DNA of 34,930 nt from a virus (taxonomy: Duplodnaviria > Caudoviricetes). The stretch spans positions 1 to 34,930 of the IMG/VR virus record IMGVR_UViG_3300011336_000452. The stretch is one strand, 5' to 3'. The notes under the pieces are model-generated. The model was given only the letters and a program-made list of their open reading frames with translations. It ran no database searches and had not been told where the DNA came from. Below are positions 4,478 to 34,537 of the stretch, in pieces (within the stretch, counting starts at the first letter, position 1; the number at the start of each line of letters is the position of its first letter). The position numbers and the translations under genes were made by a program.

Positions 4478-5500
4478 CTAAACTAGTGCAAATGCAAGTA
4501 AAGGAGTTTCAGAAGCTACTGATAATGGAGCGTGTTGTAACGCTATATCCAAAGATACTTCAACCTCTGTTAAAACATCCTGAGTATAACCGTTTACAGA
4601 TGTTCCGTTCGCTCTCGCTTCATATGAGTGAACCGCGTACGATAAACCATCAACAGGGTTTAAGATAGACCCGTATGTATTTACCATTGTTTGAACGCCG
4701 TTTCTGTTTTGAATTGGAATCCATGGTAAACCACCAATCATACCGTCTTGAACCGCAACCCAAAAACCCTTCGTATAAGACAATGCCGCAGCCGCCGCCG
4801 TCAATTGTGGCGCGTGAACGAAATTAACCCCTTGGTATTGGAATGAATAGTTCGTACTATTTGAAGCACCTTGAGCAGCTCCGAAAAGGAACTTATTGAA
4901 AGCAATTGAATCACAAAAGATTGTGAACATACCACCTTGGTACTTGTTGATGTCCATAACCATGCGAGTAATTTGAATCGCGCGATTACCGTTGGTAGCA
5001 TCTGTAATTTCAAACGCATCATTTGTAGCGTTAAAAGTACCCTCAGCAGCAGCGTTGTTAACACCCGATCTGTTTGCGAATGCATACGTAGCAGCAACGC
5101 CATCCAAACCGTCTGCGAAGTTTGCAATAACGTTCAATAATTTTTCGTTTTGCTCTTCAACTGCATCAAACACAGAGTTGTCAGCTTGTTTAAGAGTGAA
5201 AGAAAATTTGTCATTGTAAGTTGTCCAACTTGGAGTTAATACACCTGAATCACCACTTGAACCAGTATGGTTATGTGAACGACCAGTTCCCAAAGCTCTG
5301 GATTGTCTTACAAAATAATTCGCCTCAACTGCTCTATCTTCACGTTTGCGAAGGATTTCATAGTCGGGTAAAAAAGATGGAGCGCTTTGAATAAACGCTT
5401 TGAAAACAGCAGGATCGCGAAAACGCTTATCCGCATTTGCAAAAGCACCGTTTAATTTTGCTTGTGCTTTTACAAGATTTGCTAATGTGTAATTAGGCAT
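4478..5500 (-). CDS. Major capsid protein
   Basis: 340 aa, Ala/Gly/Asn-rich, after portal and scaffold, with its own promoter. Confidence 0.8.
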   Translation of the reverse strand: MPNYTLANLVKAQAKLNGAFANADKRFRDPAVFKAFIQSAPSFLPDYEILRKREDRAVEANYFVRQSRALGTGRSHNHTGSSGDSGVLTPSWTTYNDKFSFTLKQADNSVFDAVEEQNEKLLNVIANFADGLDGVAATYAFANRSGVNNAAAEGTFNATNDAFEITDATNGNRAIQITRMVMDINKYQGGMFTIFCDSIAFNKFLFGAAQGASNSTNYSFQYQGVNFVHAPQLTAAAAALSYTKGFWVAVQDGMIGGLPWIPIQNRNGVQTMVNTYGSILNPVDGLSYAVHSYEARANGTSVNGYTQDVLTEVEVSLDIALQHAPLSVASETPLLAFALV

Positions 5501-5592
5501 TTCTTTTAATTTTTAGATTAAACAATAATAAAATTTCTTTGATTTGTTGCTGAACGTCAGCGAAAGGCTTTGAAGCACGGCTTCGATAAACG

Positions 5593-5623
5593 CAAAATTA
5601 AATTGAATTAATAGGCTTGTCAA
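5593..5623 (-). promoter_or_regulatory. Bacteroidota-type promoter for capsid operon
   Basis: TAATTTTG (-7) at 5593-5600 and TTG(ACA) about 20 nt upstream. Confidence 0.6.
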
Positions 5624-5708
5624 TAGTTAGTATTGAATTATTTTGTGTTTCAACTATTCGAAATTTTCAGATAGTTCAAATTATTTTTAAAAAATGAATA
5701 ATTTTTTA

Positions 5709-5737
5709 TTGTAGTTTTAAAAACTTTTGTATCTTTG
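5709..5737 (+). promoter_or_regulatory. Bacteroidota-type promoter for plus-strand island
   Basis: TTG at 5709 and TATCTTTG at 5730-5737, divergent from the capsid promoter. Confidence 0.65.
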
Positions 5738-5762
5738 TTTCATAATTATAAATGACAACCAT

Positions 5763-5945
5763 ATGAAAGAATTAAGAGAATTACAAGCGACGTTAACTAA
5801 AATCAAACTAGAAATACCTGTATTTTTTAATATTGTTCAATTTAGAGATGTTCACGGATTAGTTAAAGAACATGGTAAAAAATCAAACGGTTTTACTAAA
5901 TGGATTTTAACTGAAAAAGGAAATAAAATTTTAAATATTGGTTAA
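5763..5945 (+). CDS. Small hypothetical protein (60 aa), winged-helix-like C-terminus
   Basis: ATG 5763 after an A-rich leader and promoter; GLVKEH...WILTEKG resembles a wHTH wing; the only credible plus-strand CDS. Confidence 0.7.
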   Translation: MKELRELQATLTKIKLEIPVFFNIVQFRDVHGLVKEHGKKSNGFTKWILTEKGNKILNIG

Positions 5946-6024
5946 TAAAACTAAATGATAATACGCCGTCCTGAATTGCGCACAAAATTAGACGTATTGA
6001 CAGCTCGGAATAGACGAGCAACAT

Positions 6025-6133
6025 ACTTAGGTGGCAGAATGGTAATGCACACACACAGCAAGTCGATGTACACGACGCCCATAAACAGAGTTGTGTGGTG
6101 GTATAAATAGGGGTTCGAGTCCTCTCCTAAGTA
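6025..6133 (+). ncRNA. tRNA-like element with elongated/inserted anticodon arm
   Basis: Acceptor ACTTAGG/CCTAAGT, D arm GCA-GAATGGTAA-TGC, T arm AGGGG-TTCGAGT-CCTCT; anticodon arm enlarged; no encoded CCA. Confidence 0.65.
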
Positions 6134-6274
6134 CTGATTCGGTTCGAGTCCGATCGTTTGCTGAGGTTAGGTAAGTCGGTATTAACAGGCGGTTGGAGTC
6201 CGTCGGCAAGAAATTGTAATGCAAGAATACGAACAGCAATAAAAACGCTTAATAGTGCGAAGTACAAGCACCGA

Positions 6275-6299
6275 GCAGGGAGCGGAGCCTGCATTTTTT
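6275..6299 (+). terminator. Terminator of plus-strand island
   Basis: GCAGG-GAGCGGAG-CCTGC then ATTTTTT. Confidence 0.55.
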
Positions 6300-6307
6300 A
6301 ACCAAAT

Positions 6308-6334
6308 AAAAAACCCCTCTTTATTTGAGGGGTT
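6308..6334 (-). terminator. Terminator after scaffold gene
   Basis: AACCCCTC-7nt-GAGGGGTT followed by a T tract on the minus strand. Confidence 0.8.
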
Positions 6335-6365
6335 ATGACTTAATCTTTCTCAATTAAGCGTGGCG

Positions 6366-7163
6366 TTATACTTCTAATGTACCAGCTTTAATTCGCTCGT
6401 TCATTTCAGCATTAAATTTGTCGCTATTTGGCGCAATACCTTTGCCTTGCATTTCTTCAATGAATTTATCAATTGATTGCTTTGCGCTTCCACTTCCAGA
6501 ATCACCGCCACCAGATCCACCATTTCCTTTGTTTATGTACGTTGGATTGTCCATGAAGAATTTATCAATCGTATCTTTCGGAGTTAACGGCTCTAATGTC
6601 GTTGGATTTTTTAGAATTTCTCCGTTTTGCTTAACGACTGTTTTACCATTTTCGACTGTGAAATCATATTTGTTTTTTATGATTGTAATCATGTCATCCT
6701 TAGGTATAACAGTATTCTGTGGAATAATCGAACCTATTTCGGTTTGAATTTGCGCACCAATTTTGAACGATTGAAATTGATTTTCGACACGTTCCTTTTC
6801 GGATTGAATAGTTTGGATATTATTTCTTAACTTTTCAATGTCCGATTCCAACGCTTTTACTTTGGTGTCGGGTTGGATGTTTGCCTCTTCAAGAACTTTT
6901 TTCTTGTAAGCTTCGGTAAATGCATCCATGTTTTTACCCTCAAAAGATAGTCCGAGTTTGTCACGGTATTCTTTGATTGTAATTTCGACACCTGTTTGTT
7001 TAGCTTCAGTACGAATGTTTGTTTTAAATGTTTCCTCTTCCTCTGGGGTGCGAATAACTAATCCATTTGGTTTAGGTAGTTCGACTTGGGTTTGTTTTTC
7101 CAACGCATCTTTAAGCGTGTTGTCGTCAATTTCAATTTCTTGACCAGCGAATTTAAACTTCAT
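6366..7163 (-). CDS. Capsid scaffolding protein
   Basis: 265 aa, charged coiled coil, Gly-rich linker (GNGGSGGGDSGSG) before a short C-terminal helix; between portal and capsid. Confidence 0.75.
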   Translation of the reverse strand: MKFKFAGQEIEIDDNTLKDALEKQTQVELPKPNGLVIRTPEEEETFKTNIRTEAKQTGVEITIKEYRDKLGLSFEGKNMDAFTEAYKKKVLEEANIQPDTKVKALESDIEKLRNNIQTIQSEKERVENQFQSFKIGAQIQTEIGSIIPQNTVIPKDDMITIIKNKYDFTVENGKTVVKQNGEILKNPTTLEPLTPKDTIDKFFMDNPTYINKGNGGSGGGDSGSGSAKQSIDKFIEEMQGKGIAPNSDKFNAEMNERIKAGTLEV

Positions 7164-32801: not shown

Positions 32802-34537
32802 TAGTTAATTATTTTTAATGTAACTTTTCCATTAGCCCAATCAAGCGGCTCTTTATAGGTAATTGTAGCTAAACTTTTTTCATCAATCCATTCTATTTTA
32901 AGCACTTCGCACCATTTATTATTTGTAAAAATGTAGTTACTGTTTTGCAAAGATACAAACTGTGATTGTCTAAGTCTAATCCTAGCCTCTTCGTGAATAA
33001 TAAAATCGTTATTTGCTATAAAATTAATATAGTGAAAATTATTCCATAATGCAGTCGCGCTATAAATAGCATCGTAGTTTGAAGTATCTAAATTTACTTT
33101 ATTGCCGCTACCTGTACTTTTAACATATAAACTTTTTGTAACTCCAAAATATTCATTACTAACTTTCATTGCATTTTTACGGTCTAAAATCTGTGCATAT
33201 AGATTAGTTCCATGACCTCCGAACGCTTGATTGATTGCTTCGGTTGTAGCATCGTATAGTAATACAAATGGAACTGCTAAAGTTTCAAGTAACGTTAATT
33301 TATTCTTTGGAGCTCCTAATGCAAAATTAATTCTAACCTCATTCAATCCTTTGATTGTTACCAAATCTGCATTTGTAGTAGGTACGTTATTCTCTGTTGA
33401 ATATTCCGCTTGGTTTCTACCAAACATTACGCCGTCAATAGTATGAGTATCGGTGTAATCAAGTGAATATGTTATGTAATATCTCTTCCAAACTTCCTCC
33501 GTATTATAAGTAAACTGCTCATCGCGTTCAGGTTGTATATTTAATGCGGGATCTATTTGTAATGATGTTTGTTGTTGTAACCAATCTCTACGTTCTAATC
33601 GTACTGTTTTATTTGCAGCGTCAATAAATAACTTAGCATTGAATTGCTTTAATACCTCATCTAACCAAGCTCCAAAAGTGGGGGTTGTATCGGACGCTGA
33701 ACAAACAGGTTTGTTATAACTGTCTGCTAAATCATTTGAAGTTTTGTCGAAAAAACTATCATTATTCTTATCCAATGGCACGGGAAGAGTTAACCATCCC
33801 GGCTGTGATTGAAATATACTTGAAGGTAAGGCGGTATATCCTAAGTACGAACATCCTTTGTTAAAAATTTCCGAATACAAACAACCTTTAAAATACTTTT
33901 TTCGAGGGAATAAGATAGGAAATAACCTTGCCATTAATGAAGCCATTGCAGCTAGAAGACTTGCAAAATAAATTAGTTTTATTGCAAATTTTGCAGCTCC
34001 AGAAATTGGATTTGCAATCAAATCAACTGTTGCCTCTGCCAATTCTTTATAAGCTTGAATAATTTGCAACGTCAACATGAATAACGCTATACTCATATTT
34101 AAGGCATCCATTGCAGCTGTATTGGTTACGACATAGTAACCTACATTTTTATAGTTGAAATATGCTGCTCCTTTGTCTTTGTACATTAAATCAAATGAAG
34201 TACCGCGAGCCTTCTCCCAAAATGTATCTGATCCGTTTCTACGCTTTAATTTAACCTCAATCTCATGCTGTCTTATAATAGGTTTTGCAGCTGAATCCGA
34301 TAAATCAATGTAATATTCAAGTGAAATATTACCTTTCATTTCAACGGTGTAAGGAATGCCTATAAACAAACCATTGTTTTGTATCCAGTTTTTAATATAT
34401 TGATTTGCCTCGCGTGGTAAAATAACAGAATCAACATTCAAACTCAATACATCTGGATTACCTGTGAAATCACTAACCACTCCAATTGAATCCCTGTTGC
34501 GTGGACTTACCTCAATGCCATTTAATAAATGTCTCAT
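32801..34537 (-). CDS. Putative tail tip / hub protein with hydrophobic segments
   Basis: 578 aa immediately after the tape measure end. Confidence 0.6.
   Translation of the reverse strand: MRHLLNGIEVSPRNRDSIGVVSDFTGNPDVLSLNVDSVILPREANQYIKNWIQNNGLFIGIPYTVEMKGNISLEYYIDLSDSAAKPIIRQHEIEVKLKRRNGSDTFWEKARGTSFDLMYKDKGAAYFNYKNVGYYVVTNTAAMDALNMSIALFMLTLQIIQAYKELAEATVDLIANPISGAAKFAIKLIYFASLLAAMASLMARLFPILFPRKKYFKGCLYSEIFNKGCSYLGYTALPSSIFQSQPGWLTLPVPLDKNNDSFFDKTSNDLADSYNKPVCSASDTTPTFGAWLDEVLKQFNAKLFIDAANKTVRLERRDWLQQQTSLQIDPALNIQPERDEQFTYNTEEVWKRYYITYSLDYTDTHTIDGVMFGRNQAEYSTENNVPTTNADLVTIKGLNEVRINFALGAPKNKLTLLETLAVPFVLLYDATTEAINQAFGGHGTNLYAQILDRKNAMKVSNEYFGVTKSLYVKSTGSGNKVNLDTSNYDAIYSATALWNNFHYINFIANNDFIIHEEARIRLRQSQFVSLQNSNYIFTNNKWCEVLKIEWIDEKSLATITYKEPLDWANGKVTLKIIN

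Follow-up and report, generated by a model that had tools for sequence, protein, structure and literature searches.

Does a tRNA frame with a remodelled anticodon arm encode a tRNA, the remains of one, or an RNA of another kind? The question was raised by positions 6025-6133 of a 34.9-kb virus record (IMGVR_UViG_3300011336_000452), the whole of which, 34,930 nucleotides, is referred to here as the window. The initial annotation, made from the letters of the DNA, had proposed a tRNA mimic (a decoy or a processed scaffold presenting an antisense loop) or else a decaying tRNA. The present analysis identified the element as a conserved, structured, non-decoding RNA gene.

The element at 6025-6133 and its cassette

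Read from its sequence, the gene lies on the plus strand and is predicted to yield a mature RNA of ~110 nt extending from N1 to A73. All structural features noted initially (the acceptor stem, U8, the D-loop GG, the T loop, A73 without CCA, the extended stem, and the sub-hairpin) were present. They are listed here with the other features of the surrounding cassette.

5730..5737, plus strand: candidate Bacteroidota-type -7 promoter element, weak, judged by its position in the sequence
5763..5945, plus strand: 60-aa ORF at the head of the cassette (5727-5945 from TTG in the ORF list), no PHROG match
6003..6019, plus strand: hairpin ahead of the frame, its loop of the GGAATAGAC type; the module recurs ahead of other frames
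6025..6133, plus strand: tRNA-frame RNA gene, with U at -1 at 6024 and C74 at 6134 (Rfam tRNA model RF00005, 40.3 bits; family covariance model R1, 103.8 bits)
6025..6031, plus strand: acceptor stem 5' strand, pairing with 6126-6132 at 7/7 pairs, all seven with double changes in the family
6032..6049, plus strand: U8 (6032), G9, leucine-type D arm (3-bp stem, A14 A15, G18 G19 at 6041-6042), and A26, from the sequence and the family tally
6050..6051, plus strand: extra CA, private to the window copy in alignments A1 (62 rows) and A2 (64 rows)
6052..6097, plus strand: insert whose 8-bp stem (6052-6059/6090-6097) replaces the anticodon stem, closes a junction, and encloses 30 nt (6060-6089); 97.3% paired, 7/8 pairs with double changes
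6062..6076, plus strand: predicted kissing hairpin, with a 4-bp stem (6062-6065/6073-6076; 100% paired in 64) and a 7-nt loop ATGTACA (6066-6072) containing the self-complementary hexamer TGTACA (6067-6072); the loop shows self-covariation
6077..6089, plus strand: second, A-rich loop (CCATAAA, 6079-6085), which may form a GNRA-like mini-hairpin or else pair with 6098-6101 as the 5' side of a 4-bp pseudoknot
6098..6108, plus strand: 11-nt variable region GTGGTATAAAT, G44 to U48, near-invariant (61/64 family members)
6109..6125, plus strand: T arm, with stem 6109-6113/6121-6125 and loop TTCGAGT (6114-6120), read from the sequence; 99.7% paired in the family
6126..6134, plus strand: acceptor stem 3' strand, discriminator A73 (6133), and C74 (6134); no CCA is encoded, A73 being followed by CTG
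6275..6300, plus strand: intrinsic-terminator-like hairpin and T run at the end of the cassette (2 sites found vs 0.4 expected)

The Rfam tRNA model matched 6025-6133 exactly (E 2.5e-5) and left a 50-nt middle unmodelled, and R1, of whose training set the window sequence is a part, matched 6024-6134. Besides tRNA, the Rfam scan of the window returned no family at gathering score. ARAGORN, proposed initially as a check, called no tRNA at 6025-6133, and the tRNA-Ser(cga) that it placed across the element at 6081-6162 is a mis-call. The early remark that the insert is too short for a group I intron agreed with its 30 nt and with the lack of any intron family in the Rfam scans. Folded by itself, the sequence was no more stable than its shuffles (z -0.19), so that the case beyond chance depends on relatives.

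In the 36 of 83 window ORFs that were scanned, terminase, portal, scaffold, and virion genes were found on the minus strand. The plus-strand cassette, comprising the 60-aa ORF, several hairpins, the tRNA frame, and the terminator-like site, lies between the scaffold gene (6366-7163) and a capsid-type gene (4478-5500) and is antisense to the head genes. The candidate at 5730-5737 rests on the -7 promoter consensus of Bacteroidota. Upstream of family members this element showed no strand enrichment (20 vs 21 of 51), for which reason the candidate is considered weak and a promoter element was dropped as a family feature. The GGAATAGAC-type motif occurred within 60 nt upstream in 7/63 family members and 12/189 other frames. 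Seven small-share sequencing runs were identified. Contigs assembled from four of them and aligned to 5400-6500 left 6066-6213 uncovered, and one contig, probably derived from DNA, spanned 5786-6043; assembled contigs can reveal neither transcription nor ends and were counted neither way for expression.

Further structures were observed downstream. A T-arm-like hairpin (6138-6154) lies in the interval 6135-6215, and ~6157-6209 possibly forms a minimal tRNA-like unit, in which a T-like hairpin would follow on a stem of 6-7 bp; competing folds exist here and the z-scores are weak. No homologue of the 6135-6215 structures was found among the fetched loci. A second cassette hairpin (6255-6271) has GTAC in a 9-nt loop, which could kiss the loop at 6067-6072 at five positions. 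An exact copy of 6243-6300 stands between different flanks in an unrelated contig, so that the stretch looks like a mobile module.

The element is an accessory insertion: of nine related phages that share this order of scaffold and capsid genes, none (0/9) carries it. These phages were identified through the capsid protein; all had a scaffold homologue upstream, and the scaffold-capsid gap was 172-333 nt in 7/9. Two of the nine (L583 and L585) carried other small inserts between the two genes, which marks the site as an insertion hot spot. No match was obtained with the scaffold protein as a query for relatives or with the RecT-like protein against isolated phages, and the capsid protein was just 28-31% identical to two phage isolates. 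A host in the Bacteroidota is likely, if on the weak basis of the terminase: Dyadobacter (55% identical) was the sole organism named among the 120 terminase matches listed.

Conservation of the family and its self-complementary loop

On phage and metagenome contigs, 64 distinct sequences, that of the window included, shared the leucine-tRNA-type frame and the same insert. The family was assembled from pattern scans and one GenBank match, and chance pattern matches without a paired frame were left out of the rows. Over the loci searched, the covariance model separated members (at least 89 bits) from other frames (at most 71 bits). No cultured representative was found among 50,697 phage records, where the only match was MW202828.1 from an uncultured spring phage. 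A scan of GTDB gave seven matches, one of which had the family insert and was on a MAG contig with phage-like neighbours. The neighbours of family members varied and included replication, packaging, or tRNA genes, with members often found within tRNA clusters. No conserved protein neighbour was identified, the largest shared protein cluster occurring in 6/63 loci (31 of 83 neighbour representatives scanned against PHROGs).

Several individual loci carried additional structures. In MW202828.1 (L001), an unannotated acceptor-plus-T-arm unit with a short hairpin (632-700) directly follows the family member, and in L237 a phage tmRNA gene (720-1068) lies on the same strand as the member, at most 450 nt away. 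An extra D-loop hairpin was observed in the frames of L048/L295, L340, L292, L010:1182-1320, and L378:1253-1398, three of which also carry the family insert. L152:1485-1600 (minus strand) contains a divergent tRNA frame with a GTAC-loop hairpin followed by CCATAAA; it falls below the model threshold and is possibly a distant relative.

Covariation was observed in all five helices, with double changes in 20 of the 27 modelled pairs (acceptor stem 7/7, extended stem 7/8, sub-hairpin 3/4). In the model-made alignment, 99.0% of 1728 cells were paired, compared with 90.0% after shuffling and 31-44% in slid controls, although such an alignment is biased towards the structure used for its fit. L048 and L340, which have D-loop inserts, were omitted from A1 and kept in A2. 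The letters from U8 to A26 formed part of the search patterns, and the conservation of 6032-6049 is accordingly not independent. Landmarks outside every pattern were also retained: C74 in 64/64, A73 in 63/64, the paired acceptor stem, and U at -1, the base that RNase P prefers, in 55/64. CCA was encoded in 0/64. Among the 50 members found by insert-blind patterns, the 11-nt variable region was identical in 48, while CCATAAA was present in just 25. The members form a closely related set, with a mean column identity of 82%.

The conserved and covarying insert supports the initial proposal of a tRNA mimic or processed scaffold, and it is not the random, unconserved insertion into ordinary tRNAs that would have spoken for the contrary. 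A decaying tRNA pseudogene might be suspected from the window copy, in which 2 nt are duplicated as in no other member and whose R1 score is among the lowest of the family. In this same copy, however, none of the 27 modelled pairs is broken, and several of those in the acceptor stem and sub-hairpin are double changes; the insert is conserved in 64 sequences. Decay is refuted at the family level by the covariation, and for the window copy it is highly improbable.

A Tyr-like anticodon, GTA, had been noted initially in the sub-hairpin loop. Of the 60 loops with seven bases, just 18 had this triplet and none (0/60) had the Y-U-NNN-R form, and across the family 7 different triplets stand at the anticodon-like position; this is not a Tyr decoy loop. 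Two further readings, an intron-containing tRNA and a functional tRNA that decodes through the sub-hairpin, would be compatible with the complete frame and with the position of some members among true tRNA genes. However, removal of a single stretch with the outer five stem pairs left intact (one stem register) gave a Y-U-NNN-R loop in 0/64, and the absence of canonical sub-hairpin loops and the changing triplet weigh equally against such a tRNA, so that both versions have hardly any probability.

What the family does preserve in this loop, and what the initial annotation had overlooked, is complementarity to itself. The last six loop bases were self-complementary at the inner four positions in 64/64 and at all six in 52/64, three of the 64 loops having been re-parsed by hand for these counts. 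There were 18 different hexamers, and their inner tetramers were of nine kinds, comprising six Watson-Crick palindromes and three with G-U; A-C occurred in none. When the columns of the hexamers were shuffled, a mean of 4.2/18 were self-complementary and 18 was never reached (0/20000), and in a register shifted by one only 5/17 were self-complementary. In the unedited model-made alignment the inner loop pairs were kept in 62/63 and 62/64 and the outer pair in 49/64, with a self-covariation score of 0.945 versus 0.234 shuffled. The loop sequence was absent from every search pattern, and the loops of L292 and L482, two members outside the training set, conformed as well. On a tree built without the loop, the palindrome class changed ~15 times (minimum 4), a count from a poorly resolved topology with few well-supported branches. 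The loop is under selection for self-pairing.

Adjacent loop bases are unable to pair within one strand, and a kissing-loop homodimer is therefore predicted. In Kretsch et al. 2025 (PMC12286853), the same kind of adjacent-base loop covariation in OLE and GOLLD matched symmetric kissing bridges in cryo-EM. From the palindromic covariation, a symmetric kissing-loop dimer is a probable form of the RNA. Some of the dimers may be marginal, as only four of the six loop bases pair in 12/64 members and several hexamers are predicted to form weak duplexes (-4 to -5 kcal/mol). Predicted cross-pairing among the 18 variants spans 0 to 6 bases. An inner G-U pair in 15/64 loops and mismatched ends in 12 break the six-base DNA palindrome while keeping the RNA pairing; this possibly reflects restriction-site avoidance, which is speculation.

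Six-base palindromes are also typical DNA sites. The palindrome might instead be a feature of the DNA or a protein-binding feature, such as an operator, a methylation or nuclease site, or a loop for a dimeric protein, with the RNA as a monomeric protein-binding carrier, and the dimer for its part is a prediction. However, the palindrome changes freely in sequence (9 tetramers) with self-complementarity alone kept, it sits exactly within a covarying hairpin loop, and the three non-Watson-Crick tetramers, just three cases, are all G-U on the RNA strand and never A-C. A DNA or protein site is thus considered improbable.

The self-complementarity also bears on the antisense proposal, in which loops on the frame, as in C4 RNA, would pair with phage or host mRNA. 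Single-stranded loops carried by a tRNA-like scaffold are consistent with such a role. A guide loop, however, would follow its target rather than its own complement, and the preserved self-complementarity disfavours this reading. There was no Rfam match to C4, the antisense RNA of P1/P7, or to YrlA, both named initially as models to search. No target was found within the 34.9-kb contig, possibly incomplete, in which the longest match to 6060-6089 elsewhere on either strand was 9 nt. An antisense function is accordingly quite unlikely.

The rest of the insert is less uniform. The second loop carries tetraloops such as ATAA, GAAA, GTAA, and GCAA-like sequences in most members and is best read as a short hairpin, which in a subgroup is lengthened to 3 bp; its mini-stem was just 60% paired. 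Its first four bases and the start of the variable region were pair-compatible in 95% of cells, but this 4-bp match had no compensatory change (487/500 shuffles scored as high), and in L181 and L231 one side of it was lost. The second loop may be either a GNRA-like mini-hairpin or a 4-bp pseudoknot with the variable region. A relic anticodon (CAU, GUA, or GAA) in this loop was rejected: read in register, the four bases are ATAA/GTAA/GAAA/GCAA, and CAU falls in another register.

These observations bear on the main rival to a decoy, a purely structural multimer, in which the kissing loop and a second intermolecular contact would build rings, cages, or filaments as in GOLLD and ROOL, and the frame would serve only stability and processing. 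The second contact would be made by the A-rich GNRA-like loop itself, or by this loop paired to the variable region of a further copy. We regard this rival as possible at a low probability. The tetraloops, the near-invariant variable region, and the 95% compatible match favour it, as does the frequent position of members in tRNA clusters, a setting shared with GOLLD and ROOL according to PMC12286853. Against it stand the lack of compensation in the 4-bp match, the one-sided losses, and the poorly paired mini-stem; a single symmetric contact yields dimers only.

The tRNA frame, its other inserts, and known RNAs

The same acceptor, D, and T arms were found around many inserts, another point that the initial annotation had overlooked. 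After exclusion of 33/253 frames with a divergent acceptor stem, 220 frames fell into 125 clusters, with ~120 non-family inserts. The family is the largest insert cluster because it was searched for; in an insert-blind sample, 6/127 loci carried its insert. From the 5' 15-mer of the frame, ~1800 stored viral stretches were estimated to contain it. Palindromic loops were not enriched in the other inserts (44/119 vs 36.4 +/- 4.5 shuffled), so dimerisation is not the general purpose of the frame, and the palindrome as a design common to all inserts was set aside.

Seven frames, interleaved with true tRNAs, were found on a single contig. Leucine-type frames that are nearly identical, yet all differ in their inserts, stand in arrays of 3-7 amid true tRNA genes in L214 (IMGVR_UViG_3300042485_002236), L344, L368, L373, L463-L465, L480-L481, and L500. 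When four sequencing runs were compared with L214, contigs of one metatranscriptome library contained both halves of the frame with other inserts between them, and none covered the family insert; these contigs, too, were counted neither way for expression. L513 has a frame that lacks its middle, its D arm running directly into the end of the T arm; recombination between these two arms, which are similar in sequence, would be expected to leave such a product.

Compared with the canonical tRNA of RF00005, the element has the 7-bp acceptor stem, U8, the D-loop GG, and a T arm with a 7-nt loop. In place of the 5-bp anticodon stem and 7-nt loop with U33 and purine 37, it has the 8-bp stem and junction. 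With bacterial tRNA-Leu it shares A73, U8-A14, A15-U48, G18 G19, and the T loop, and its D arm has the sequence of leucine tRNAs at the same loci. It differs from tRNA-Leu in lacking an anticodon loop, in the junction-closed 8-bp stem, in a D loop shorter by one base, and in A1-U72.

Bacterial LeuRS (PMC2377443, PMC9976931) needs A73 and the D/T tertiary core rather than the anticodon arm. A leucine frame would thus tolerate inserts, which may explain its choice. The LeuRS identity elements A73, U8-A14, A15-U48, G18-U55, and G19-C56 were present (A73 63/64, U48 63/64, U8/A14 A15 64/64), in a tally whose D and T letters were partly imposed by the search patterns. The identity set also contains A20a and a long variable arm in the proper orientation. 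Relative to leucine tRNAs, the D loop lacked one base in 58/64, which makes leucylation by LeuRS uncertain, and the 11-nt variable region has a stem of at most 2 bp.

Among annotated phage RNAs, the closest comparison was with T5 RNA1 (NC_005859.1 30501-30644) and RNA2 (32959-33083), recorded as 'tRNA-like stable RNA with unknown functions'. RNA1 likewise has a leucine-type D arm, a T arm, and a long folded insert at the anticodon-arm site, and lies in a tRNA cluster. The T5 inserts are different, and R1 matched neither RNA, only a tRNA at 30.3 bits in the locus. The skipping-rope RNA and tLRNA-1 to -3 are similar in having a ~7-bp acceptor helix joined directly to a 5-bp/7-nt T stem-loop, no anticodon, a variable lower half, and a likely protein-binding role. 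They differ in their rewired elbow, where the family has a canonical D arm, and no Rfam match to them was found. The words 'dimer', 'kissing', 'palindrom', and 'phage' do not occur in the main text of the skipping-rope paper. YrlA and Y RNA have a further point of difference, as no Ro60 was identified among the 36/83 window ORFs or 31/83 neighbour representatives scanned with PHROGs. The tmRNA pair G3-U70 was found in 0/64 members.

The tip of the element was compared with multimeric RNAs. The family hairpin resembles the retroviral dimer-initiation hairpin (HIV-1 DIS), a six-base palindromic loop on a short stem. HIV-1 DIS and phi29 pRNA are named as natural multimers in PMC12286853; the family differs from both as a stand-alone small RNA without a fixed tie to genome packaging. 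A packaging-RNA role was rejected, as the gene context is not fixed and is here antisense to the head genes. OLE bridge B3 and GOLLD bridge B8 have in common with the family a palindrome-switching loop recognised through adjacent-base covariation, and tRNA islands are often found close to GOLLD and ROOL, which are carried by phages (PMC12286853). OLE and GOLLD are several hundred nt long with five or more inter-chain contacts, whereas the family RNA has 110 nt and one evident contact. There was no Rfam match to GOLLD, ROOL, or OLE, and their size and multi-domain fold are absent. In summary of these likenesses, the upper half is like a tRNA mimic, and the tip is predicted to act like the palindromic bridge of OLE. 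No description of the family was found in the open-access literature, a search likely to have missed older T5 papers.

Proposed action and meaning for phage biology

The RNA would be transcribed within the plus-strand cassette, and host tRNA-processing enzymes would trim its 5' and 3' ends and add CCA. Maturation of both ends and CCA addition by host enzymes belong to general tRNA biology, and the landmarks make it very probable that the L-shaped frame would be matured like a tRNA. Two copies would then pair through the loop into a dimer of two-fold symmetry, from which both acceptor ends and both elbows would face outward. Such a two-headed tRNA look-alike could capture, with double avidity, host proteins that bind or attack the ends and elbows of tRNAs and thereby act as a decoy. 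The decoy role itself is a guess of fairly low probability, well below that of the steps before it, and the genes next to family members give no pointer to a partner. Taken as a whole, an account of a non-decoding leucine-frame RNA that is matured by the host, dimerises through its loop, and most likely serves as a tRNA-like decoy is the one towards which we lean, by a modest measure.

A bolder proposal would make this the smallest natural self-assembling RNA yet, in which the palindromic kiss and the A-rich contact build rings or cages and the fast-changing palindrome is a self/non-self barcode separating the RNAs of co-infecting phages. It would then be one module in a library of more than 100 inserts swapped into one host-processed frame. 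We consider this rather unlikely. Natural RNA-only multimers with evolutionary support are described as rare and large in PMC12286853. The family offers a multimer candidate of 110 nt that is easily transcribed, with the 18 natural loop variants as built-in controls.

For phage biology, the predicted dimer would give one insert its first concrete testable property within a large, uncatalogued class of tRNA-frame RNAs, to which the long-unexplained RNA1 of T5 also appears to belong. ARAGORN overlooks genes of this class, or they are recorded as weak tRNAs. Should the decoy role prove true, the family would represent a new RNA-based counter-defence; either way, the engineered tRNA scaffold has in it a natural counterpart.
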